Assembly: GCF_056746865.1 (NCBI RefSeq)
Contig: NZ_CM163382.1
Length of the DNA stretch: 64,000 nucleotides
Direction: 5' to 3' (one strand)
Shown here: in pieces, positions 4,691-36,269 of the stretch
How the letters are laid out: each line of letters begins with the position of its first letter
How positions within the stretch are numbered: the stretch's first letter is position 1
The notes under the pieces: model-generated
Databases searched by the model: none
Seen by the model: only the letters and a program-made list of their open reading frames with translations
What the model was told of the DNA's origin: nothing
Made by a program: the position numbers and the translations under genes

Positions 4691-7154
4691 ATATCCCTGA
4701 CGATTCCTTGCCCGCCAGCGCCTCCACAATCACCATCGCCGCCCGTTCTCCCGCCTTGCCATCCATAAACGCATCGCAATAGTGATGACGAATCTCCTTA
4801 AGCCGCGCCAGCAACGCACCCCAGTCAAACGCCTCTGACAACAAATAACGCAGTTCCGCAACATCATGAGCCACCGGCAATATTTCGCGGATTTGCTGGT
4901 CGGCGCTTTCGGGCGTGGAGTAACTTTTCTCACCGTCGAGCAACGCTGCCATTTCCGGAAAGTCGAGCAGGATTACCCGCTTATCAACGTGGATAGCATC
5001 GAAAATAAAGCCGCTGTTATCGGTCAGCACGTAATCGGCCTTTGCCAGTAGCGCCAGCGTGTGGTGGACGGAGTCGGTGCGCTGTTTTAAGTGCCTGCGC
5101 GCCAGGGCCAGCGATGCAGCTTCTTCCGGGCGCGAGCAGGTGCCGTGGTGCAGTTTGCAAATCAGATTCACATTGCCACTTAAGCGCCCCAATTTTTCTG
5201 CCCAGTGGGGCAGGGAGCTTAATGCGCCAAACGTGGGGGCGTAGAGCACCGTAGGTTTACGGGAATCGGGTTGAATATTTTCTGGCAGAATGCGGTCAAA
5301 CGTGCCGTTATGCCAGGCGTCGAAGCGCGGGTTGCCGACTGCTTTTGCATTGCCGAAATGCGCCAGCGCCCGCTGGCTGTAGTGGCTGTAACACAAAATG
5401 CGTTGATAAAAACGGTTCCAGTCGGCGTGGTTCCACGTCTCTTTGGCTAAGCCATACATGGCGCGAACGTTCACCGCTGCCAGGCCATTGAGCGCGGGCG
5501 TGTGGTAGGGGCTGACCAGGCATTTCACCCGCTGACCGTGTGCCTGCATTTCAGATAAGCGCATTCCTTTGAGCTGCGGATCGTCGATGCTTTTTAGCGT
5601 CTCCAGCATTTCATCCAGAAACGGTTTAAACACGCGGTCGTTGATCACCAGCGTGCAGCCTTGCCCCTGCGCCTGTAGGGCGGTGATGATTGGGCGGTAG
5701 AGCGCGTAATGGAAAGAAGTTTCCATAAAAAAGCCGATGGTGTCGGCGATGGGTAACGCGGATGGCTTTGTGATAGCAGGTAACTTATTGAAATAGTGAG
5801 CAATATTATCAGTCATTTTTTTCTCGATATCGCTAAAGCCTGGTCGCTGATAACTAAGGCTCGGGTAACAGGCCAGCCATTTGTCGGCGCGTAGCAGCGG
5901 CTGCCAGCCGTCTTCCAGCGAATGCTCATCGTTGCTCATCTGCTGCGCCAGTTGCGGGTAGTAGCGGCGGTTCACCAGATAAGCGCATACCTTGCGGCAG
6001 TCCCGCGCGTGCACCAGCCCCGGCAAACTTTTTAGCATCGTTCCCTGCGAAATTTCGCCGCCGAGGATCATCACCTGCCAGGGAATTTTCGCCAGGCTCG
6101 CCAGCAGCGTGTTCAGCACCTGAATATGTTTCTCCTGCTTGAGAATAACCGCGTCATCTTCCAGCAGCAGATAGTTTTGCCAGCCGTGCTGTTGCGCCAG
6201 GCGCAGCGCCTGCAAGTGCGACTGACGTCGTCCCCGTTGGCCGTTTTGATCTTCACTGGCGGCAAGGCGGGTGATCTTCTCAGGTGGAATATGCAGCAAT
6301 GCCAGTTCTTCACGGATCTGTTGTAAGCGATCCGGGCGTTTATCCAGATTCACAACAACTACCTGATCGATCGTCTGATGGTTGATCCCTTGGTGATGAG
6401 TGGCGTTATGTAGACTCAGATAAGCATTGCGCAGCAGCGGATCGCTGACGATATCTGTAAGCGCCGCGTTTACAGGCGTGCTGGCCCCGAGAATAAAGTC
6501 TTTATCAAAGGTGTTGTGGCTGTGCGAGATACACAGAATCGTGCGCTCGCCGGGCAGTTGTAGCGGGTTAACGCTGAAATTGTCGGTGAAACTTTTCTCT
6601 TCGCCTAAATTGCAATCATCGTCGTAACGGTGCTTTTTCAGGTAGTTACGGTGATAGCAAAAGGTGCCGTTGAGGATGTTATGTGGGCCAAAGCTGCGGC
6701 TTTGAAAGATGCGATTGATGTGGCTGTACCAGATGGGGATCTGGTCGGAGCCGGAGATGAGCGCCCGGTGTTTTTGCATCTTGGCGATGGTCCAGGAGAT
6801 TTTATCTGCCGGGTAGTAGTCGTCATCGTCCATGCAGAGGATGTATTCGCCGCGCGCCAGTTCGTTGAGCATATTGCGTTTTTTGCCCAGCGGCAGTTTT
6901 TCCGGGTGATGAATATAGCGGATGTTAAAGGCTTCCGGCGTGCCATTGGTCAGGCGGTCGATGATGTGTTGATGGCTTTGCGGGGAATCGTCGAGGATGA
7001 TGAGTTCGCGGCGGTCTGCCGGGTAGTCCTGATAGCGGTACATATAAAGCAGGTACGGCAGGAATGCGCTGCGGTTCCAGGTTGGCGTGACGACGCTGAT
7101 GAACGGTTTTTCGCGCTGGGTGGCGAGTGTTTTGATAATGGTTGGTGTTGGCAT
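4683..7154 (-). CDS. Multidomain glycosyltransferase: N-terminal GT2-like, central GT25-like, C-terminal CDP-glycerol glycerophosphotransferase (TagB/TagF)-like
   Basis: The ORF track gives 4683..7226, but its first 24 codons translate the repeat element, so the ATG at 7154 (MPTPTIIK) is the probable start. GT2-like motifs: VVTPTWNRS and LCMDDDDYY (DxD). GT25-like segment: VVVNLDKRPDRL...LLEDDAVI. TagF-like C-terminus: ADYVLTDNSGFIFDAIHVDKRVILLD. Confidence 0.8.
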   Translation of the reverse strand: MPTPTIIKTLATQREKPFISVVTPTWNRSAFLPYLLYMYRYQDYPADRRELIILDDSPQSHQHIIDRLTNGTPEAFNIRYIHHPEKLPLGKKRNMLNELARGEYILCMDDDDYYPADKISWTIAKMQKHRALISGSDQIPIWYSHINRIFQSRSFGPHNILNGTFCYHRNYLKKHRYDDDCNLGEEKSFTDNFSVNPLQLPGERTILCISHSHNTFDKDFILGASTPVNAALTDIVSDPLLRNAYLSLHNATHHQGINHQTIDQVVVVNLDKRPDRLQQIREELALLHIPPEKITRLAASEDQNGQRGRRQSHLQALRLAQQHGWQNYLLLEDDAVILKQEKHIQVLNTLLASLAKIPWQVMILGGEISQGTMLKSLPGLVHARDCRKVCAYLVNRRYYPQLAQQMSNDEHSLEDGWQPLLRADKWLACYPSLSYQRPGFSDIEKKMTDNIAHYFNKLPAITKPSALPIADTIGFFMETSFHYALYRPIITALQAQGQGCTLVINDRVFKPFLDEMLETLKSIDDPQLKGMRLSEMQAHGQRVKCLVSPYHTPALNGLAAVNVRAMYGLAKETWNHADWNRFYQRILCYSHYSQRALAHFGNAKAVGNPRFDAWHNGTFDRILPENIQPDSRKPTVLYAPTFGALSSLPHWAEKLGRLSGNVNLICKLHHGTCSRPEEAASLALARRHLKQRTDSVHHTLALLAKADYVLTDNSGFIFDAIHVDKRVILLDFPEMAALLDGEKSYSTPESADQQIREILPVAHDVAELRYLLSEAFDWGALLARLKEIRHHYCDAFMDGKAGERAAMVIVEALAGKESSGICR

Positions 7155-25591: not shown

Positions 25592-26646
25592 ATCCGGCAT
25601 TGCTTGCCACGCTCGGAACGCTTGCGGAAACGGCGTCGCTGAAAACGGACATCTTACCGCCGGTGAGCGGTGAAAACGCGCCCGCGTTTACCCTGCCGAA
25701 AATGGCGGGCGCGGCGGTGGCAGAGCGCGTTCATAGCGCTAAAACCAGTCAGCAACAGGCGACGCGCCCGCAGGAGAACGATCCGGTGGCGATGCAGGCG
25801 CTAATGGCGCTGTTACTTCCGCAACCTGCCGCGCCGCATCAGGAGACGCCGCAGCCGCGAAACGCCGCAACATCGCCAGTTATTCAGCAATTGACGAAAG
25901 CGGTGGTGCAAAACGCGCCGCAACGCTCGACACAACAGCAGGAACTCACGCCGTTGCCGCCACAGTTGCAGGAACTGATCGGTCAGTTGCCGCAGGCGAA
26001 ACCCGAACAGCAGGCCAGACTGGCGACTTACGCCAGTGAAGATTTACATGCCATTGCGCCGACGCAGCCGCGCGTCTCAACACAGCCAGCTCGCCCGAAA
26101 ACTGAACTAACCCGTGTGACCGCGCGCCCGCAGGTCGAGCGTAAAACGGAAAAAGTGACGGACAGCGAACCGGTTATTGCGCGTGCGGTGTTGCAGGTTA
26201 AGACGCCGGAACTGGTCAGCGATCATCAGGAGATTGTCGCCAAACCAGCCACGCTTTCGATGGACGAACTGGGTGAAAAACTGACGACGCTTTTGAAAGA
26301 TCAGATCCACTTTCAGCTCAACAAACAACAGCAGATCTCCACCATCCGTCTCGATCCACCGTCGCTTGGCAAGCTTGAGATCGCCGTACAACTCGACAAC
26401 GGCAAACTGATGGTGCACATCGGCGCGAATCAAAGCGAAGTTTGCCGCGCGTTACAGCAGTTTAGCGACGATCTCCGCCAGCATCTGACGGCGCAAAATT
26501 TTATGGAGGTGAACGTACAGGTTTCCTCCGAAGGGCAGTCGCAGCAACAACAGTCGGGCCATCAGCAGGAAGAGGTGAGTGCCGCCTTACAGCTTGATGA
26601 TGCGCCTCAATTTCAACAGAACGAATCCGTTTTGATCAAAGTGTAA
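25588..26646 (+). CDS. lafE: Flagellar hook-length control protein FliK-like
   Basis: 352 aa with a Pro/Gln-rich central region and a FliK-like C-terminal domain. Confidence 0.7.
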   Translation: MNPALLATLGTLAETASLKTDILPPVSGENAPAFTLPKMAGAAVAERVHSAKTSQQQATRPQENDPVAMQALMALLLPQPAAPHQETPQPRNAATSPVIQQLTKAVVQNAPQRSTQQQELTPLPPQLQELIGQLPQAKPEQQARLATYASEDLHAIAPTQPRVSTQPARPKTELTRVTARPQVERKTEKVTDSEPVIARAVLQVKTPELVSDHQEIVAKPATLSMDELGEKLTTLLKDQIHFQLNKQQQISTIRLDPPSLGKLEIAVQLDNGKLMVHIGANQSEVCRALQQFSDDLRQHLTAQNFMEVNVQVSSEGQSQQQQSGHQQEEVSAALQLDDAPQFQQNESVLIKV

Positions 26647-26653
26647 AGGCAAT

Positions 26654-27121
26654 ATGAAGAAAATCGTGGTGGCGGGCGTGGTCAGCGCCGTTCTGGCGTT
26701 GGTGGTGGGGGCCGGAGCTGGATGGGGTGTCTGGCATCATTATGCCGGAAAAGGAAAACCGACGGCCGTTGCACGGGCGGAAACGGTGGAAACCCTGGAT
26801 GAAAGCAAAAGCGTGTTTGTGACGTTGCCGGAAACCATTGTCACGCTGCATGACAACAACGGTGCGGACCATTATTTGTCGGCGGAATTAGTGATGGTGG
26901 TCGCCAGTGATAAAGAAGCGGAAAAAATAAAACATCAGGAGCCGCTGTATCAAAGTATTGCAGTTGAATGCCTGACGGAAATGAAATTTGAAGATTTGCG
27001 CGGCATGAAAATATCCGCCATCCGCAAACTGATTTCTGATGCGTTAAAGAAAGATCTTCAGCGTCGCAAAATGAGCGCACCGTATAAGGATTTGCTGGTG
27101 AAAAAAGTGGTCTTCCAGTAA
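26654..27121 (+). CDS. lafF: Flagellar basal-body-associated protein FliL-like
   Basis: 155 aa with a single N-terminal TM helix and FliL-like architecture, preceding the sigma-28 and motor genes. Confidence 0.7.
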   Translation: MKKIVVAGVVSAVLALVVGAGAGWGVWHHYAGKGKPTAVARAETVETLDESKSVFVTLPETIVTLHDNNGADHYLSAELVMVVASDKEAEKIKHQEPLYQSIAVECLTEMKFEDLRGMKISAIRKLISDALKKDLQRRKMSAPYKDLLVKKVVFQ

Positions 27122-27140
27122 TCACCAGGCGGATATAAAC

Positions 27141-27857
27141 ATGCTACAGGACGTATTCGAGTCAGAAGAATTTGCTGCCGCGCCGGTATTAACCCCGCAG
27201 CAGGAGAGCCACTACTTGCAGGCCTATCTACCGTTGGTGCGTAAAGTGGTGCGGCAACTTGCTCCGCAGTGTAATTGCATTATTGACCGTCAGGATATGG
27301 AACAAACGGCGTTAATGGGGCTGCTTAATGCCATTCGTCGCTATGGGCTGCCGGACGAAGGTTTTGCGGGCTATGCCGTGCACCGGATTCGCGGCGCGAT
27401 CCTGGATGAGCTGCGCGCTCTCGACTGGCGACCGCGCCAGCTGCGACAGAAATATCATCAGATGAAAGATCTGATTCGTGAGACGCGCAAAAAACTGGGG
27501 CACGAACCGGAGTGGTCAGAACTGGCCGTGGAAGGGATTTCGCATGAAGATTATCTCGAATATCAGCAACTGGAAGGGGCGGAAACGCTCGCCAGCCTTG
27601 ACGAACTGCTGAACGGTGAAGGGCCAGGCATTCCACTTGCTGGCAGGGAACTGGAAGATCAGTTTGTTACCCAGCAAATGCTGCAATACGCGCTTTCACA
27701 ATTAAGCGAAAAAGAGCAACTGATCCTCTCCATGTATTACCAGCATGAGATGAATCTCAAAGAGATTGCGCTGGTATTAGGGCTAACCGAAGCCCGAATT
27801 TGTCAACTGAATAAACAGATCGCGCAGAAAATTCGTGATTTTGTCTATCCGAATTAA
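27141..27857 (+). CDS. lafS: Flagellar sigma factor (FliA/sigma-28 family)
   Basis: 238 aa with a sigma-70 region-2-like segment and a C-terminal region-4 HTH (LKEIALVLGLTEARICQLNKQ). Confidence 0.85.
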   Translation: MLQDVFESEEFAAAPVLTPQQESHYLQAYLPLVRKVVRQLAPQCNCIIDRQDMEQTALMGLLNAIRRYGLPDEGFAGYAVHRIRGAILDELRALDWRPRQLRQKYHQMKDLIRETRKKLGHEPEWSELAVEGISHEDYLEYQQLEGAETLASLDELLNGEGPGIPLAGRELEDQFVTQQMLQYALSQLSEKEQLILSMYYQHEMNLKEIALVLGLTEARICQLNKQIAQKIRDFVYPN

Positions 27858-27869
27858 AGTGAAGAAATC

Positions 27870-28733
27870 ATGCAAAAAATATTAGGTTTACTGGTGGTGC
27901 TCGGCTGCGTATTTGGCGGTTATTTTGAAGCGGGCGGGCAATTAGTGGCTATCTGGCAACCGGCGGAAATGATCATTATTTTGGGGGCGGGTTTCGGGGC
28001 AATGATTATTGGTAATCCGAAACATGTGCTGAAAGAGATTGCTCATCAAATTAAAGGCGTGATCAGTAAAAAACAGCTCGGGCCGGAGTTTCAGCGCCAG
28101 CTATTAATGTGTCTGTATGAGTTGCTCGAAATGGTGCAAAACGGTGGTCTGCGCATGTTGGATCAGCATATTGAGCAGCCGGAAGAGAGCACCATTTTCC
28201 AGAAATACCCGCTGGTGTTAACCCAGAAGCGGCTGGTGACCTTTATTGCCGATAACTTTCGCCTGATGGCGATGGGCAAAATCGACGCCCACGAACTGGA
28301 AGGGATTCTCGATCAGGAGCTGGACACCGCCGAAGAGTCGCTGCTAACGCCGTCACGCTCGCTGCAACGTACCGCCGAGGCGATGCCAGGGTTTGGCATT
28401 TGCGCGGCGGTGCTGGGCATCATCATCACCATGCAGTCGATTGATGGGTCTATCGCCCTGATTGGCCTGAAAGTGGCGGCAGCGCTGGTGGGGACGTTTT
28501 TAGGCGTCTTTATCTGCTACTGCCTGATGGACCCGCTCGCCAACGCCATGGAACAACAGGCGCGGGCGGAACATTCTTTGCTGGAATGCGTGCGCACCGT
28601 GCTGGTGGCGCAGGCAGGCGGCAAACCGACGCTGCTGGCAGTGGACGCCGGGCGTAAGCTGCTGCATCTGGCGTCCAAACCGACCTTCGCCAACCTCGAC
28701 GCGTGGGTGAATGCGATGCTGGAGCAAGAATAA
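27870..28733 (+). CDS. lafT: Flagellar motor stator protein MotA-like
   Basis: 287 aa with four predicted TM helices and conserved MotA C-terminal segments. Confidence 0.9.
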   Translation: MQKILGLLVVLGCVFGGYFEAGGQLVAIWQPAEMIIILGAGFGAMIIGNPKHVLKEIAHQIKGVISKKQLGPEFQRQLLMCLYELLEMVQNGGLRMLDQHIEQPEESTIFQKYPLVLTQKRLVTFIADNFRLMAMGKIDAHELEGILDQELDTAEESLLTPSRSLQRTAEAMPGFGICAAVLGIIITMQSIDGSIALIGLKVAAALVGTFLGVFICYCLMDPLANAMEQQARAEHSLLECVRTVLVAQAGGKPTLLAVDAGRKLLHLASKPTFANLDAWVNAMLEQE

Positions 28734-28735
28734 GC

Positions 28736-29659
28736 ATGAGAAAGACGGGCAACCGCCGCGAGCGTGGGGCAAAAACCACCATCGTCCGGCGGCAGATCAA
28801 AAAAAATCATGCCGGGCATCACGGCGGGGCGTGGAAGGTGGCGTTCGCCGACTTTACTTTGGCAATGATGGCGCTATTTATGACGCTGTGGATTGTCAAC
28901 AGCGTCAGTAAATCCGAGCGTGAAAGCATTATCGCCGCGCTGCACGGGCAGTCGATTTTTAACGGTGGCGGGCTGTCGCCGTTAAATAAAATCAGACCGT
29001 CTCATCCGCCAAAACCTGCCACCGTGGCGGTGCCGGAAGAGACGGAGAAAAAAGCGCATGACGTCAACGAGAAAACGGCGCTGCTGAAGAAGAAATCCGC
29101 TACTGAGCTTGGCGAGCTGGCAACCAGTATCAACACCATTGCCCGTGATGCGCATATGGAAGCGAATCTGGAGATGGAGATTGTTCCCCAGGGACTGCGC
29201 GTGCTGATTAAAGATGACCAGAACCGCAATATGTTTGAACGCGGCAGCGCGCAGATTATGCCGTTCTTTAAAACTTTGCTGGTGGAGTTAGCACCGGTTT
29301 TTGATTCGCTCGACAATAAGATCATCATCACCGGGCATACCGATGCGATGGCCTACAAAAACAATATCTACAACAACTGGAACCTTTCGGGCGATCGCGC
29401 GCTTTCAGCTCGTCGGGTGCTGGAAGAGGCCGGAATGCCGGAAGATAAAGTGATGCAGGTAAGTGCAATGGCGGACCAGATGCTGCTGGATGCCAAAAAT
29501 CCGCAAAGCGCGGGCAACCGGCGCATTGAGATTATGGTGCTGACCAAAAGTGCGTCCGATACGCTGTATCAATACTTTGGTCAGCATGGGGATAAAGTGG
29601 TGCAACCGCTGGTGCAAAAGCTGGATAAGCAGCAGGTGCTTTCGCAGCGAACGCGTTAA
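28736..29659 (+). CDS. lafU: Flagellar motor stator protein MotB-like (OmpA-type peptidoglycan-binding domain)
   Basis: The ATG at 28736 follows the lafT stop. It has a TM helix (FADFTLAMMALFMTLWIV) and a C-terminal OmpA-like motif (NWNLSGDRALSARRV). Confidence 0.85.
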   Translation: MRKTGNRRERGAKTTIVRRQIKKNHAGHHGGAWKVAFADFTLAMMALFMTLWIVNSVSKSERESIIAALHGQSIFNGGGLSPLNKIRPSHPPKPATVAVPEETEKKAHDVNEKTALLKKKSATELGELATSINTIARDAHMEANLEMEIVPQGLRVLIKDDQNRNMFERGSAQIMPFFKTLLVELAPVFDSLDNKIIITGHTDAMAYKNNIYNNWNLSGDRALSARRVLEEAGMPEDKVMQVSAMADQMLLDAKNPQSAGNRRIEIMVLTKSASDTLYQYFGQHGDKVVQPLVQKLDKQQVLSQRTR

Positions 29660-29697
29660 ATGCTGAATCTTTATGCATTTCTCAAACTCTGAAATCA

Positions 29698-29713
29698 CTG
29701 TATACTTTACCAG
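29698..29713. promoter_or_regulatory. LexA (SOS) box upstream of dinB
   Basis: CTGTATACTTTACCAG matches the CTG-N10-CAG SOS box, about 17 nt upstream of the dinB ATG. Confidence 0.85.
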
Positions 29714-29729
29714 TGTTGAGAGGTGAGCA

Positions 29730-30785
29730 ATGCGTAAAATCATTCATGTGGATATGGACTGCTTTTTCGCAGCGGTGGAGATGCGCGACAATCCTGCCCT
29801 GCGCGATATCCCTATTGCTATTGGCGGCAGCCGCGAACGTCGGGGGGTGATCAGCACCGCCAATTATCCCGCGCGTAAATTTGGCGTACGTAGCGCTATG
29901 CCGACAGGGATGGCGCTCAAATTTTGCCCACATCTCACGCTGCTTCCAGGGCGCTTTGACGCCTACAAAGAAGCCTCAAATCATATCCGCGAAATTTTCT
30001 CGCGCTATACCTCGCGCATTGAACCGTTATCACTGGATGAAGCCTATCTCGACGTCACCGATAGTGTGCATTGCCACGGTTCTGCGACCCTCATCGCCCA
30101 GGAAATCCGCCAGACAATCTTCAACGAGCTGCAACTGACGGCGTCTGCGGGCGTTGCGCCGGTAAAGTTTCTCGCTAAAATCGCTTCCGACATGAATAAA
30201 CCCAACGGTCAGTTTGTGATTACTCCGGCAGAAGTTCCGGCATTTCTGCAAACCTTACCGCTGGCAAAAATTCCTGGCGTCGGCAAAGTCTCGGCGGCAA
30301 AACTGGAAGCGATGGGGCTGCGGACCTGCGGTGATGTGCAAAAGTGTGATCTGGTGACTCTGCTCAAACGTTTTGGCAAATTTGGCCGCATTTTGTGGGA
30401 GCGTAGTCAGGGGATTGACGAGCGCGACGTTAACAGCGAACGGTTGCGAAAATCCGTCGGCGTGGAACGCACGATGGCGGAAGATATTCATCACTGGTCT
30501 GAATGTGAAGCGATTATCGAGCGGCTGTACCCGGAACTTGAACGCCGTCTGGCAAAGGTAAAACCTGATTTACTGATTGCCCGTCAGGGAGTGAAATTAA
30601 AGTTCGACGATTTCCAGCAAACCACTCAGGAGCACGTCTGGCCACGGCTGAATAAAGCTGATCTAATCGCCACCGCGCGTAAAACCTGGGATGAACGCCG
30701 CGGCGGGCGCGGTGTGCGACTGGTGGGGCTGCATGTGACGTTGCTTGACCCTCAAATGGAAAGACAACTGGTGCTGGGATTATGA
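29730..30785 (+). CDS. dinB: DNA polymerase IV (Y-family translesion polymerase)
   Basis: 351 aa with the Y-family N-terminus [26 protein letters not shown]. Confidence 0.95.
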
Positions 30786-30836
30786 TGTATACTATTATGT
30801 CTATTCTGGTGTGCATTATTATGAGGGGATCACTGT

Positions 30837-31130
30837 ATGCATCGAATTCTTGCGGAAAAATCGGTCAATATCACTGAGTTACGTAAAAACCCAGCTAAAT
30901 ACTTTATTGATCAACCAGTTGCGGTTCTTTCTAATAATCGCCCCGCAGGATATCTCTTAAGTGCCAGCGCATTCGAAGCGTTAATGGACATGCTTGCTGA
31001 ACAAGAGGAGAAAAAGCCTATAAAGGCGCGCTTCCGTCCAAGTGCTGCAAGATTAGAGGAAATTACACGCCGAGCTGAAAAATATCTTAATGATATGACG
31101 GATGATGATTTCAATGACTTTAAGGAATAA
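30837..31130 (+). CDS. yafN: Antitoxin YafN (Phd/YefM family)
   Basis: 97 aa, immediately upstream of the yafO reading frame. Confidence 0.85.
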   Translation: MHRILAEKSVNITELRKNPAKYFIDQPVAVLSNNRPAGYLLSASAFEALMDMLAEQEEKKPIKARFRPSAARLEEITRRAEKYLNDMTDDDFNDFKE

Positions 31131-31132
31131 GG

Positions 31133-31531
31133 ATGCGGGTATTCAAAACAAAACTCATTCGCCTGCAACTTACAGCAGAGGAACTTGAAGCGTTAACGGC
31201 GGATTTTATTTCCTATAAGCGTGACGGTGTTTTGCCAGATATATTTGGTCGCGATGCACTCTACGACGACTCGTTTACCTGGCCATTAATCAAATTTGAG
31301 CGAGTTGCTCATATTCATCTGGCAAATTAGAATAATCCATTTCCGCCACAGTTGCGCCAATTCAGCAGAACGAATGACGAAGCGCATTTGGTATATTGTC
31401 AGGGTGCGTTTGATGAGCAAGCATGGTTGCTCATTGCCATTCTGAAACCTGAACCTCATAAACTGGCTCGAGATAACAACCAAATGCATAAAATTGGGAA
31501 AATGGCAGAAGCGTTTCGCATGCGTTTTTGA
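31133..31531 (+). pseudogene. yafO: yafO toxin gene interrupted by an in-frame amber codon at codon 66
   Basis: The frame stops at TAG (31328..31330). The same frame then stays open for 66 more codons to TGA at 31529..31531, giving the 132-codon length expected for YafO. Confidence 0.6.
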
Positions 31532-31540
31532 ATTTATATT

Positions 31541-31993
31541 ATGAATAACATACATATAAGAAACTATCAGCCTGGCGATTTTCAGCAACTATGCGCTATT
31601 TTCCTTCGAGCGGTTACGATGACTGCCAGTCAGCACTATTCTCCACAGCAAATTGCCGCCTGGGCGCAGATTGACGAATCTCGCTGGAAAGATAAACTCG
31701 CGAAATCACAAGTGCGGGTTGCAGTCATTAATGCACAACCGGTTGGTTTTATTTCCCGCATTGAACATTATATCGATATGTTATTTGTTGACCCTGAATA
31801 CACCCGCCGTGGGGTTGCCAGCGCTTTGTTAAAACCTTTGATTAAGTCTGAATCCGAACTTACGGTGGACGCCAGCATAACCGCAAAGCCCTTTTTTGAA
31901 CGTTATGGTTTTCAGACAGTTAAGCAGCAGTGCGTTGAATGCCGGGGAGCGTGGTTTACTAATTTTTATATGCGATATAAACCGCAACATTAA
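31541..31993 (+). CDS. yafP: GNAT-family N-acetyltransferase YafP
   Basis: 150 aa in the dinB-yafNOP operon position. Confidence 0.8.
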   Translation: MNNIHIRNYQPGDFQQLCAIFLRAVTMTASQHYSPQQIAAWAQIDESRWKDKLAKSQVRVAVINAQPVGFISRIEHYIDMLFVDPEYTRRGVASALLKPLIKSESELTVDASITAKPFFERYGFQTVKQQCVECRGAWFTNFYMRYKPQH

Positions 31994-32171
31994 ATCCAGC
32001 TTGCAATGAAAATAACGCCCGCCTAGTATGTGCGCGTTTTCTTATTCCACAAACTGCAAGGAGGTAAATCATGACAAATCCTTTATCAATGACTCTTTGC
32101 AGACCTTTCCAGGATTAATTCTTTTTTTCTTGCCCTGGATTCGTCTGCCATTTCCTGATTTTTATTCATAA

Positions 32172-33323
32172 ATGGAATGGTTTATGGGCAAATATATTCG
32201 TCCCTTATCCGATGCGGTATTTACCATCGCATCTGATGACCTGTGGATCGAGAGTTTAGCGATCCAACAATTACACACCACGGCAAATTTACCCAACATG
32301 CAGCGCGTAGTAGGGATGCCAGATTTACATCCCGGACGCGGCTACCCGATTGGCGCAGCGTTCTTCTCCGCAGGCCGTTTTTACCCGGCACTGGTCGGCA
32401 ATGATATCGGCTGCGGCATGGCGCTATGGCAAACAGATATTCTCGCTCGCAAATACAACGCCGATAAGTTTGAAAAGCGATTATCAGCTTTGGATGACGT
32501 TGCTGAAGAAAGCTGGCTGGAGGAAAACCTGCCGTCAGCATTTGCACAGCATCCGTGGCGCAGCTCGCTTGGCTCTATCGGTGGCGGAAACCACTTCGCA
32601 GAACTGCAACAAGTTGATGAAATCATCGACGCTGAACTGTTTGCACTGGCAGGTCTGGATGCGCAGCATCTGCAACTGCTGGTTCATAGCGGCTCGAGGG
32701 GGTTGGGGCAGTCTATTTTACAGCGGCATATTGCCTCGTTTTCGCATCATGGTTTGCCTGAAGGCAGTGACGACGCGCTACGGTATATTGCGGAACATGA
32801 CGATGTGCTAGCGTTTGCGCGTATTAATCGCCAGATGATTGCTTTGCGCATAATGCAACAAGTTAAGGCCACCGGAAGTCCGGTTCTGGATGTGGCGCAT
32901 AACTTTGTTAGCGCGTGCCAAATCGGCGATCAACAGGGTTGGTTGCATCGTAAAGGTGCCACGCCGGATGACAACGGTCTGGTGATTATTCCCGGTTCAC
33001 GCGGTGATTACTCCTGGCTTGTACAGCCTGTTGCGAACGAAAAAACGCTCCACTCGCTGGCGCATGGGGCAGGGCGTAAATGGGGGCGCACCGAGTGTAA
33101 AGGGCGTCTGGCAGCGAAATGCACGGCGACGCAACTCTCGCGTACTGAACTTGGCAGTCGGGTAATTTGTCGCGATAAACAACTCATCTTTGAAGAAGCG
33201 CCACAAGCCTATAAATCGGCTGAAAGCGTGGTGCAATGTCTGGTGCAAGCCGGTTTAATTATTCCTGTCGCGCGGCTGCGTCCGGTGCTAACGCTCAAAA
33301 ACAGTGGAGGGAAAAAAGGATGA
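32172..33323 (+). CDS. rtcB: RtcB-family RNA ligase paralog (partner of PrfH)
   Basis: 383 aa with RtcB-like metal-binding segments ([14 protein letters not shown]; [10 protein letters not shown]). Its stop overlaps the prfH start in an ATGA arrangement. Confidence 0.85.
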
Positions 33324-33934
33324 TCTTGCTACAACTCTCCTCAGCGCAGGGGCCGGAAGAATGTTGCCTCGCAGTGAAAAAGGCGCTGGACAGGTTGATT
33401 AAAGAAGCTACCCGACAAGACGTCGCGATAACGGTGCTGGAAACAGAAACGGGTCGCTACTCTGACACGTTGCGTTCAGCGCTGATTTCTCTGGATGGCG
33501 ATAACGCATGGGCATTAAGCGAAAGTTGGTGCGGCACTATCCAGTGGATTTGTCCGAGTCCGTATCGGCCTCATCATGGGCGCAAAAACTGGTTTCTGGG
33601 CATTGGGCGTTTTACTGCTGATGAGCAGGAACAATCGGATGCAATCCGTTATGAGACGCTGCGTTCGTCGGGGCCGGGCGGTCAACATGTCAATAAAACC
33701 GACTCGGCGGTACGCGCCACGCATCTGGCATCCGGGATTAGCGTGAAGGTTCAGTCAGAGCGCAGCCAACATGCCAACAAACGGCTGGCGCGATTGCTGA
33801 TTGCCTGGAAGCTGGAGCAACAGCAACAGGAAAATAGCGCGGCGCTGAAATCGCAGCGGCGAATGTTCCATCACCAGATTGAACGTGGCAACCCGCGACG
33901 AACGTTTACAGGGATGGCTTTTGTCGCTGTGTAA
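33320..33934 (+). CDS. prfH: Peptide chain release factor homolog PrfH (GGQ motif)
   Basis: 204 aa with [16 protein letters not shown], the class-I release-factor GGQ motif. The start overlaps the rtcB stop. Confidence 0.85.
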
Positions 33935-33995
33935 TTGAGGAATGTCTCCCGCCGTTTTCTATATGAAAGCGGCGGGAAAAACGAAAGGAATAGTC

Positions 33996-34505
33996 ATGTT
34001 TATCGGTCATCTTCCGGCTGGTTATTTAATAACTTGTACTTTAATGAAACGCTTGCCACTGATTGCTCGTCATGCGCGCTGGGCGATGGTTATTGGCTTA
34101 CTTGGGGCCGTTGCGCCCGATTTTGATCTTTTTTGGTGCTATCTGGTTGATAACGGGCAACGACATCATCATCTTTACCCGTCTCATTGGCCATTATTAT
34201 GGTTTGCTCTGCTGGCGGCGACATTAGTCTGGGCAGGAATTGCGAAGAATAAACTTCCGGCGTGGCTGGGCGTGGTGTTTTGCCTGAATAGTATCGCGCA
34301 TTTATTACTCGATACGCTGGTCGGTGATATCTGGTGGCTGATGCCTTTCGTTAACCAACCGTTTGCATTCTTTCATATTACGGCGGTACATCATCCGTGG
34401 TGGCTCAATTTTTTATTACACTGGTCGTTTTTACTGGAACTGGCATTAGTGGTTGCCGCCATTGCCATGTGGTGCAGGCGTAATGCCAAAATGGTAAATG
34501 CATGA
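33996..34505 (+). CDS. Inner-membrane protein, YdjM/DUF457-like membrane-bound hydrolase family
   Basis: About 169 aa from MFIGHLPAGYLI, with several TM helices and His-rich motifs. The ORF track's upstream extension is probably spurious. Confidence 0.5.
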   Translation: MFIGHLPAGYLITCTLMKRLPLIARHARWAMVIGLLGAVAPDFDLFWCYLVDNGQRHHHLYPSHWPLLWFALLAATLVWAGIAKNKLPAWLGVVFCLNSIAHLLLDTLVGDIWWLMPFVNQPFAFFHITAVHHPWWLNFLLHWSFLLELALVVAAIAMWCRRNAKMVNA

Positions 34506-34521
34506 AAAAATTATTCTGACT

Positions 34522-34803
34522 TTAAGCGGCGTAACATGTTTCCTGGGGAAATTCTCCCGTGGTTAAGTATGCTCTCCTGACTTTGCCCCAGGCTCTGAAC
34601 ATATAAAATTTCTGCTTTTCACCCTTAAGTTCTTTCACGGATTCCAGCGCAAAACCTTCTTTGGTGATCAGAAATTCTCCCCATGAAATATGGTCGCAGC
34701 TATATAAATATGCGACCTTTTCATGAGTTTCATAATGTTTTGTTATTTCGATATAGATAGCCATTGGCTTCAAACAGTAGTCCACGCCCGCAGGCGTGGA
34801 CAT
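34522..34803 (-). CDS. Hypothetical small protein
   Basis: 93-aa ORF in the gap between the membrane-protein gene and pepD. No motif recognised. Confidence 0.25.
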   Translation of the reverse strand: MSTPAGVDYCLKPMAIYIEITKHYETHEKVAYLYSCDHISWGEFLITKEGFALESVKELKGEKQKFYMFRAWGKVRRAYLTTGEFPQETCYAA

Positions 34804-34811
34804 TATTGTAA

Positions 34812-36269
34812 TTACTTCGCCGGAATTTCTTTCAGCAGTTCAGTCAGTAGTGTCCAGTAATGACCTACGCTTTCGATGTGAACTTGCTCATCCGGAGAGT
34901 GTGGACCGGTGATGGTTGGCCCGATAGAAACCATGTCCATTTCCGGATACGGTTTTTTGAACAGACCACATTCCAGGCCCGCGTGGATAATCTGGATGTT
35001 CGGCGTCTTGTTGAACAGACGCTGATAAGTTTCACGTACCAGATGCATCACCGGAGAATTAGCGTCCGGCTGCCAGCCAGGATATGCGCCTTTCGCTTCG
35101 GTTTTCGCGCCAGCCAGTTTACCCAGCGAATCCAGCATGCTCACCACGTAGTCTTTACCGCTGTCGATCAGAGAACGGATCAGGCAGTGAATTTCTACGT
35201 TATTGTCAGTCATGGTCACCACACCGACGTTCAGGGAGGTTTCCACCACACCTTTTGCCACATCGGAATTGCGGATCACACCGTTCGGGGTGGCGTTCAG
35301 CAGACGAATAAAGGTATCGCGAGATTTCGCAATCAGGGCAGCTTTATCGTTCGCAACAGAGTCCAGCAGCAATGCCAGATTTTTCTCTTTCTCTGCCAGC
35401 TCGTTTTTCAGGATTTCCTGATAGGTATTCACCAGAGATTTCAGGGCGTCGACTTTATCAGCTGCGACAGCAATGGTCGCAAAGGCTTCACGCGGGATGG
35501 CGTTACGCAGTGTGCCACCGTTGAAATCGATAAGGCGCAGGTCCAGCTCTTCTGCATGACCCGCCAGGAAGCGCACCAGCAGTTTGTTGGCATTACCCAG
35601 GCCAACGTGGATTTCACCGCCGGAGTGACCGCCTTTTAGACCTTTTAAGGTTAACTTGAAGGTTTCAAAACCAGCTGGAACTGCTTCACGATCTAAATGC
35701 AGGTTGGAGGTGAAGTCGATACCCCCCGCGCAACCCATGTAGATTTCACCTTCCTCTTCGGAGTCGGTGTTAATCAGAATATCAGCCTGCAACCAGTTGC
35801 TCTGTAAGCCAAAAGCACCATCCATACCGGCTTCTTCGGTCATGGTCAGCAGCACTTCCAGCGGGCCGTGAACCACGTTTTCGTCAGCCAGAACCGCCAG
35901 CGCAGACGCCATACCAATGCCGTTATCCGCACCCAGCGTGGTGCCGCGCGCTTTAACCCATTCGCCATCAATATAAGGCTGGATAGGATCTTTAGTGAAG
36001 TCATGCACGGTGTCGTTATTTTTCTGCGGCACCATATCGAGGTGGGCCTGCAAGACGACCGGTTTACGATTTTCCATACCTGCGGTAGCAGGTTTACGAA
36101 TCAGGATATTACCTACCTGATCGCGTTCGACATGGAAACCTTTCTCTTTTGCCCAACCAACAATGTATTCAGCGAGTTGCTCTTCATGATAGGACGGGTG
36201 AGGAATAGAACAGATTTTGGCAAAAATATCCCACAGCGGCTGTGGAGATAATTGAGACAGTTCAGACAC
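34812..36269 (-). CDS. pepD: Cytosol nonspecific dipeptidase (aminoacyl-histidine dipeptidase)
   Basis: 485 aa with M20-family metal-binding motifs, in the conserved pepD-gpt-frsA-crl-phoE-proBA neighbourhood. Confidence 0.93.
   Translation of the reverse strand: MSELSQLSPQPLWDIFAKICSIPHPSYHEEQLAEYIVGWAKEKGFHVERDQVGNILIRKPATAGMENRKPVVLQAHLDMVPQKNNDTVHDFTKDPIQPYIDGEWVKARGTTLGADNGIGMASALAVLADENVVHGPLEVLLTMTEEAGMDGAFGLQSNWLQADILINTDSEEEGEIYMGCAGGIDFTSNLHLDREAVPAGFETFKLTLKGLKGGHSGGEIHVGLGNANKLLVRFLAGHAEELDLRLIDFNGGTLRNAIPREAFATIAVAADKVDALKSLVNTYQEILKNELAEKEKNLALLLDSVANDKAALIAKSRDTFIRLLNATPNGVIRNSDVAKGVVETSLNVGVVTMTDNNVEIHCLIRSLIDSGKDYVVSMLDSLGKLAGAKTEAKGAYPGWQPDANSPVMHLVRETYQRLFNKTPNIQIIHAGLECGLFKKPYPEMDMVSIGPTITGPHSPDEQVHIESVGHYWTLLTELLKEIPAK

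Follow-up and report, generated by a model that had tools for sequence, protein, structure and literature searches.

An intact rtcB2-prfH gene pair in an Escherichia coli chromosome and a conserved upstream leader with a possible regulatory role

The window, which is the whole stretch of 64,000 nucleotides (nt) analysed from contig NZ_CM163382.1 (NCBI RefSeq assembly GCF_056746865.1), contains rtcB2, a gene for an RtcB-family RNA ligase, directly followed by prfH, the gene for peptide chain release factor H (PrfH), and both are preceded by a leader with a small open reading frame (ORF) (Table 1). As judged from the sequence, the RtcB2-PrfH operon for ribosome rescue and repair is present here in a functional copy with a probability of about 0.9. 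The gene pair is already known: papers from 2006 to 2026 cover its biochemistry, structure and in vivo role, and the window adds one more intact allele. Novelty, if any, is confined to the leader.

Table 1. Features at the rtcB2-prfH locus; positions are counted from the first letter of the window.
Feature	Position	Strand	Remarks
Promoter-like site	32001-32029	+	-35 TTGCAA, 17-nt spacer, -10 TAGTAT; putative
Conserved operon leader RNA	32054-32183	+	Segments A-G; recognised by sequence conservation
Leader segments A, B and C	A 32054-32063, B 32093-32104, C 32108-32113	+	
Leader segments D, E, F and G	D 32134-32139, E 32143-32148, F 32148-32155 (CCAUUUCC), G 32174-32180	+	
Leader small ORF	32071-32118	+	15 codons and TAA; encodes MTNPLSMTLCRPFQD
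Polymorphic insertion site of an ERIC-like repeat	32165-32166		Within the leader and 18 nt ahead of the rtcB ATG; empty here
rtcB2, PrfH-associated RtcB RNA ligase	32184-33323	+	379 amino acids; frame open upstream to an unconserved ATG at 32172
Stretch lost in K-12	32391-33417		1,027-base-pair deletion; from blastn and junction sequences
ATGA overlap of rtcB2 stop and prfH start	33320-33323	+	Read in the sequence; translational coupling
prfH, peptide chain release factor H	33320-33934	+	204 amino acids; TIGR03072 match

A full-length RtcB ORF of 383 amino acids had been reported in the original prediction, which was made from the letters without database searches. The ORF itself was confirmed by the family models, as the protein matched NCBIfam NF007153 (RNA ligase RtcB family protein) with 637.7 bits (cut-off 407; model positions 1-378 of 379) and TIGR03073 (release_rtcB) with 616.1 bits (cut-off 271.8; 1-356 of 356), whereas the length had to be corrected. 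The plus-strand ORF 32172-33323 comprises 383 codons when counted from its first ATG. Because this ATG is unconserved (ACG in E. coli strains LHM10-1 and STO_Bone1B in the locus alignment) and the start at ATG 32184 (MGKY..., ATGGGCAA) is shared by RefSeq, the NCBIfam model and all nine Enterobacterales alignments, RtcB2 most likely has 379 amino acids. In strain 118UI, to which the window is 100% identical over 13.8 kilobases, the RefSeq protein WP_000521550.1 also begins at 32184. According to these models the protein belongs to the PrfH-associated clade (TIGR03073 release_rtcB / PRK09588) and not to RtcB1. The catalytic motifs NDIGCG (D74, C77), GNHF (H137), HSGSRG (H168), AHN (H239) and HGAGR (H294) are all found, and they align with the same motifs in the RtcB structures of Pyrococcus horikoshii and Thermus thermophilus. 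From published RtcB structures, we take these six residues to be the metal-binding set and the guanylylated histidine.

E. coli RtcB1, a protein of 408 amino acids encoded in the rtcBA operon under the control of RtcR and sigma-54, has the RtcB fold, the GTP-dependent ligation of 3'-phosphate and 5'-OH ends and the conserved catalytic motifs in common with RtcB2. It differs by its clade, by its partner, which is RtcA and not PrfH, and by its tRNA-type substrates. The RNA substrates of RtcB1 and RtcB2 were described as mutually exclusive (PMC9304027), and RtcB1 does not relieve ribosomes stalled by colicin E3 (PMC13166195).

The stop codon of rtcB (TGA, 33321-33323) overlaps the start codon of prfH (ATG, 33320-33322) within GGATGATC, with GGAGGG and AAGGA shortly upstream, so that the ATGA overlap noticed earlier could be read directly. 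The same 4-nt overlap recurs in eight other Enterobacterales loci, and in Pseudomonas the overlap is 1 nt. PrfH was likewise found to be full-length as proposed, matching TIGR03072 with 328.8 bits (cut-off 166.65; model positions 1-200 of 200) and carrying the GGQ motif at residues 120-122. It is identical at 199 of 202 positions (98.5%) to chain 8 of PDB 7SA4, which is the PrfH of E. coli ATCC 25922 on a damaged 70S ribosome. The residues A9, G11, P12, R52, S53, R83, H85, H86, R88, K89, N90, R181, H184 and R189, which contact the cleaved A1493-phosphate, h18/S12, C1914 or C1054 (Tian et al. 2022, PMC9304027), are all identical to the list given there. Frameshifts or internal stops were found in neither rtcB nor prfH. 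Compared with three other intact E. coli alleles, the ratio of nonsynonymous to synonymous substitution rates (dN/dS) was 0.12-0.14 for rtcB and 0.05-0.09 for prfH, and both genes are thus under purifying selection.

With the release factors (RF) 1 and 2 and with ArfB, PrfH shares the GGQ catalytic domain (Pfam RF-1, PF00472), and its alignment to RF2 spans domains 2-4 of that protein. Unlike RF1 and RF2, it lacks domain 1 and stop-codon reading and aligns only to about residues 115-308 of RF2. Assignments to these related proteins were tried and rejected. As a class I release factor, PrfH reached 94 bits for prfB (cut-off 370) and 82-83 bits for prfA (cut-offs 400-423), with only the central and GGQ regions aligning, and as ArfB it reached 33.7 bits against a cut-off of 100.

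The two-gene operon, then called the RFH operon, and its translational coupling were first predicted by Baranov in 2006. Later on, Tian et al. (2022, PNAS, PMC9304027) reported from biochemistry, cryo-EM and in vivo assays that PrfH releases peptides only on ribosomes with a 16S rRNA cut between A1493 and G1494, that RtcB2 re-ligates this cut in the free 30S subunit and does not repair tRNAs, and that the pair reverses the damage in vivo. In the same year, the native chromosomal operon was shown to shield ATCC 25922 from colicin E3, whereas K-12 BW25113 was unprotected (Maviza 2022, International Journal of Molecular Sciences, PMC9223846). A study from 2026 added that PrfH speeds the repair by RtcB2 and that E3-damaged ribosomes accumulate at start codons (PMC13166195). 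With biochemical, structural and in vivo proof for the ATCC 25922 alleles since 2022, the function of the pair is therefore no longer an open question.

By analogy with these near-identical proteins, the damage would be set by a ribotoxin such as colicin E3 or CdiA-CT(ECL), shown by others to cut 16S rRNA between A1493 and G1494, upon which the 70S ribosome stalls. The PrfH pocket formed by R83, H86, R88 and R189 would recognise the cleaved 3'-terminal A1493 phosphate, and the GGQ loop would hydrolyse the peptidyl-tRNA, which would allow the subunits to separate. RtcB2, using GTP, would then rejoin the two ends of the 16S rRNA within the free 30S subunit. Both genes are probably transcribed as a single mRNA, and prfH would be coupled to the translation of rtcB2 through the ATGA overlap.

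The pair in the window and that of ATCC 25922 come from the same species and agree in chromosomal position, two-gene arrangement, ATGA overlap and RtcB family (TIGR03073, PRK09588). The window copy is an allelic variant, its DNA being about 96% identical to most E. coli copies, and it differs by its downstream neighbours, a YdjM-family gene and an ORF of 93 codons, both lacking in most E. coli. Two further differences may be held against a functional copy: PrfH ends with VAV where IEG is usual, and 9-15 residues of RtcB deviate from those of other intact alleles. Nothing in the sequence of the pair itself appears to speak against function. The intact and coupled rescue and repair pair of the original prediction is supported by the sequence, by the family models, by the solved structure of a near-identical PrfH and by the literature, and the strain is probably tolerant to colicin E3 and to ribotoxins of the CdiA-CT(ECL) type, unlike K-12, BL21-type and O157:H7 strains.

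How the RtcB2-PrfH operon is switched on is not described in the RtcB2-PrfH literature that was examined. Between yafP and rtcB, a promoter-like site is followed by a conserved leader, and transcription is predicted to start near 32036. The elements TTGCA and TAnnAT recur with the same spacing in Citrobacter, Klebsiella and Salmonella, which makes four genera including Escherichia, and the proposed promoter rests on this conservation because its match to the consensus is below the threshold. A consensus scan of 31400-34900 for promoters and terminators yielded none in the yafP-rtcB spacer. A sigma-54 -24/-12 motif upstream of rtcB2 was also considered and was rejected by eye, as its GG-GC spacing is wrong.

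In the leader, a strong Shine-Dalgarno (SD) sequence AAGGAGG (32058-32064) stands 6 nt before the ATG of the small ORF. Six E. coli strains, E. whittamii and two Escherichia sp. share a block of about 122 nt without any difference. The yafP-rtcB spacer is present in 5,387 of 5,426 E. coli genomes and is more conserved than the adjoining genes, with an identity of at least 98.8% among sampled full-length rows vs about 96% for the genes. Wider conservation was gathered from the contigs of PrfH homologues in eight other Enterobacterales genera, and the leader segments are kept in all eight. In nine out of nine Enterobacterales taxa, the SD sequence, the 6-nt spacer and the ATG are followed by an ORF of exactly 15 codons that is separated from the rtcB ATG by 60-72 nt. 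Codons 1-8 vary freely, and [LI]CRxxQx-stop is found at the C-terminal end. Owing to the variable N-terminal codons, a degenerate back-translated pattern of the leader ORF had matches on genome contigs of three Escherichia species only. In Pseudomonas sp. PDM18 the leader ORF has 13 codons (MQALITLCRSRLA), and the core motifs are shared. That a conserved leader ORF exists is well supported by these comparisons, and the ORF is annotated neither in K-12 nor in strain 118UI.

A link between rtcB2 and a leader peptide was not found in the literature searched, and the peptide string MTNPLSMTLCRPFQD had no match there; enterobacterial leaders may already have been mentioned in Morita 2009. Termination-reinitiation was rejected as a role of the leader ORF, its stop codon being 60-72 nt away from the rtcB ATG. 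On the minus strand, the invariant block also contains an ORF of 21 codons (32120-32163, MADESRARKKELILERSAKSH) with AGGA about 1 nt before its ATG, which by eye is probably incidental.

The ERIC-like repeat is inserted in the loop between leader segments F and G. The window, uk_P46212, IAI39 and E. whittamii lack the insert, and the site holds a form of about 56 base pairs (bp) in LHM10-1, STO_Bone1B and Escherichia sp. E1V33 and the full form of 129 bp in K-12 (5335-5463 of the retrieved locus L001) and Escherichia sp. MOD1-EC7003. A K-12 interval in the yafP-rtcB spacer from a published riboswitch screen was considered as a hit to the leader and was rejected, as it maps mostly onto this insert.

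The segments of the leader can pair in two mutually exclusive states. In state 1, A pairs with B, and E together with F pairs with G and the rtcB AUG; in state 2, B (GCAGAC) pairs with E (GUCUGC) and C pairs with D. The pairing potential of the segments was 93-97% compared with 14-52% in slid controls. In free leader RNA, A with the leader SD would be bound to B, and the start of rtcB would be masked by the pairing of E and F. A ribosome parked on the leader AUG or on early codons would cover A, B would then pair with E and C with D, and the rtcB start would open. In constrained folding of the E. coli sequence, the cost of opening rtcB from -13 to +6 was 11.0 kcal/mol for free RNA and 6.6 kcal/mol with a ribosome on the leader AUG. 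With a ribosome at codon 10 or at the stop codon, the cost across taxa was 9.5-19.6 kcal/mol and hence near or above the value for free RNA. The opening changed in the same direction in all eight scored Enterobacterales taxa and in Pseudomonas. When the B-D region was shuffled, the change was 0.3 +/- 1.4-1.9 kcal/mol, and the observed value was reached in 2/120, 1/120 and 0/120 shuffles. The predicted opening of the rtcB start by 4.4-4.7 kcal/mol is accompanied by only one covarying pair, which is A-U, G-U in Klebsiella and G-C in Pragia.

From these results we infer a translational switch of the ermC type. E3-cut ribosomes were reported to park at start codons, and it is therefore proposed that damage to ribosomes would itself turn on the system for their repair. 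As in the leader-peptide attenuation of ermC and cat, there would be four pairing segments, and a stalled ribosome would free segment 2 to pair with segment 3, which would expose the ribosome-binding site (RBS) downstream. In contrast to ermC and cat, to which there is no sequence relationship, segment 1 includes the leader's own SD, and the switch would respond to damaged ribosomes or to early stalls in general and not to the arrest by a drug together with the nascent peptide.

A precedent exists in Pseudomonas aeruginosa, where the orthologous operon of armZ (PA5471) and PA5470 is controlled by a leader peptide of 13 amino acids, PA5471.1, which senses ribosome stalling. Both systems comprise an RtcB2-family gene, then prfH, and upstream a short leader ORF whose translation reports, or in E. 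coli would report, ribosome trouble. The 13-codon leader of Pseudomonas sp. shares with the E. coli leader the core GCAAAGGAG...CTTTGCAGG...GCCTGCC...ATCCT...GGATTGG...ATGGGCAA. The P. aeruginosa leader differs in that it lies about 250 nt upstream and is said to act by transcription termination, whereas the E. coli leader ORF ends 65 nt before rtcB, has no evident terminator and is predicted to act on the rtcB RBS. ArmZ has also gained a role as anti-repressor for MexZ.

Several points weigh against the switch. The mechanism in Pseudomonas was described as transcriptional attenuation and not as unmasking of an RBS. The paired columns are almost all invariant, and the one compensatory pair was equalled in 111 of 500 shuffles and is not significant. 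The folding result depends on assumptions about the 5' end and the ribosome footprint, and the fold of the whole spacer had a z-score of only -1.7. The promoter-like site matches only 8 of 12 consensus positions, which is below the scan threshold. A scan of 29400-35000 against Rfam found no family at E<=1, and no canonical terminator-like site was found in a scan of 31994-32183, where the sequence after the hairpin of B:E and C:D, CAUUUCCUGAUUUUU, does not qualify as a canonical adjacent U-tract. Control of rtcB2-prfH in Enterobacterales by the 15-codon leader ORF in an ermC-like RNA switch, together with homology of this leader to PA5471.1, is thus a tentative model, to which we give somewhat worse than even odds. 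If true, the enzymes of ribosome repair would be made in response to the damage they repair, and the literature on colicin defence would be linked with that on the induction of MexXY by antibiotics. The leader ORF and the predicted switch provide a concrete hypothesis, induction by stalled or damaged ribosomes, that is easily and cheaply tested.

A switch of this kind would answer any early stall and not E3 damage alone, which would speak for a broader role of the pair. PrfH might rescue other stalled ribosomes and RtcB2 act on other RNA substrates, as part of a general response to stalled translation by antibiotics or amino-acid analogues like that proposed for PA5470/ArmZ. In Pseudomonas, many drugs that target the ribosome induce the orthologous operon, PA5470 was reported to relieve stalling by azithromycin, and the PrfH subfamily of Capnocytophaga gingivalis also rescues intact stalled ribosomes. 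The K-12 gene ykfJ is reportedly inducible by 4-azaleucine, according to PMC3516279, which cites Morita 2006. However, E. coli PrfH was active only on damaged ribosomes, and only 30S subunits cut at A1493/G1494, and not tRNAs, were repaired by RtcB2. According to PMC9223846, the operon gave no protection from tRNA-targeting colicins. The window protein is, moreover, of the E. coli type, scoring 451 bits to 7SA4 and 142 bits to the Capnocytophaga-type 9MOR. A role beyond defence against toxins of the colicin E3 type is unlikely.

The location next to the dinB-yafNOP operon had been pointed out in the original prediction as a possible hint to the SOS response. The adjacency was confirmed, and the co-regulation was not. 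In strain 118UI the annotated order is lateral-flagellar genes, dinB, yafN, yafO (pseudogene), yafP, rtcB, prfH, YdjM-family gene, hypothetical gene, pepD, gpt and frsA. Because the order dinB-(yafP)-rtcB-prfH-pepD-gpt-frsA is common to Citrobacter, Klebsiella, Salmonella, Kosakonia, Enterobacter and Cronobacter, the position beside dinB is read as ancestral synteny of Enterobacteriaceae. Were the pair the distal part of a LexA-controlled dinB-yafNOP transcript, it would belong to the SOS response, and this would fit with its position on the yafP strand 190 nt downstream of yafP (178 nt from ATG 32172), with the lack of a canonical intrinsic terminator in the scanned yafP-rtcB spacer, with the LexA box upstream of dinB (29698-29713) and with the wide synteny itself. 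A scan for CTGT-N8-ACAG with one mismatch recovered this dinB box, with a window-wide number of matches no higher than chance, and found no LexA-like box in 31994-32183. Between yafP and rtcB lie a promoter-like site and a leader that are conserved and belong to the pair itself, and the same leader accompanies the operon in Pragia and a Pseudomonas, where the neighbours are unrelated and dinB does not adjoin. A weak hairpin with a U-run at about 32014-32050, seen by eye and not scored by a tool, could also end the dinB transcript. For the synteny, the missing box, the separate promoter-like site and leader, and the leader's presence in the absence of dinB, SOS co-regulation of the pair is not supported, and membership in the dinB transcript is quite improbable.

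In K-12 both genes are annotated as pseudogenes (NC_000913.3; ykfJ, b0235, and prfH, b0236), in line with the original prediction. Alignment with K-12 and with the characterised pair found the genes intact in the window and K-12 to have lost about 1 kilobase. The deletion, already described in Baranov 2006 and Tian 2022, is bounded by imperfect 9-bp repeats, TACCCGGCA (32382-32390) and TACCCGACA (33409-33417), and removes codons 70-379 of RtcB and codons 1-33 of PrfH out of frame. At least 80% of the pair is present in 2,674 of 5,426 complete E. coli genomes (49%), and among the sampled rows of the remaining genomes several deletion classes were seen, in which 42%, 32% and 22% of the query is covered. 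Of these, the class with 42% corresponds to the K-12 type and was also seen in sampled records of O157:H7 and BLR(DE3). In STO_Bone1B (1211-2372 of the retrieved locus L004), a 22-bp tandem duplication shifts the frame of rtcB and leaves prfH intact, which is a further, independent route to the loss of the operon. An intact pair is thus ordinary in E. coli, and loss has been repeated. In the summary of E. coli genomes, 15 matches to this chromosomal region were on records labelled as plasmids.

That the pair is intact but silent or decaying in this strain and contributes nothing, as in K-12, O157 and other losing lineages, is very improbable: the locus is loss-prone, as the deletion classes and the duplication attest, and no consensus sigma-70 promoter reached the scan threshold, but the dN/dS values of 0.05-0.14 show that intact alleles are still under selection, no catalytic or contact residue is missing, both the leader and the promoter-like site are conserved, and the operon protects ATCC 25922 at its native level.

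Downstream of prfH, a segment of 882 bp (33927-34808) replaces 61 bp of K-12 between prfH and pepD, and therefore the last three residues of PrfH are VAV instead of IEG. It was found in only 327 of 5,426 E. coli genomes, and its presence in E. whittamii and Escherichia sp. MOD1-EC7003 suggests an ancestral segment that most E. coli have lost. The segment contains the YdjM-family gene for an inner-membrane 'metal-dependent hydrolase' (33996-34505, plus strand; Pfam PF04307, E=1.5e-8) and the ORF of 93 codons on the minus strand (34522-34803), for which no match in Pfam or NCBIfam was found. A perfect GC-rich hairpin of 9 bp (GTCCACGCC-CGCA-GGCGTGGAC, 34780-34801) lies just downstream of pepD, which is on the minus strand. 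As this hairpin coincides with the first eight codons of the 93-codon ORF, the annotated start of that ORF is doubtful.

Further upstream, the toxin gene yafO (31133-31531) contains an in-frame TAG (31328-31330) at codon 66, which is E66 in K-12, and the antitoxin gene yafN is intact. In the identical strain 118UI, yafO is a RefSeq pseudogene ('internal stop'). In uk_P46212, LHM10-1, STO_Bone1B and IAI39, yafN-yafO is absent and dinB overlaps yafP directly. Upstream of dinB, at 26172-29659, genes of the Flag-2 lateral-flagellar system were found (FliK-like, FliL-like, FliA/WhiG sigma factor, motA and lafU), which are annotated as intact in 118UI. At the same position in K-12, lfhA and lafU are pseudogene remnants.

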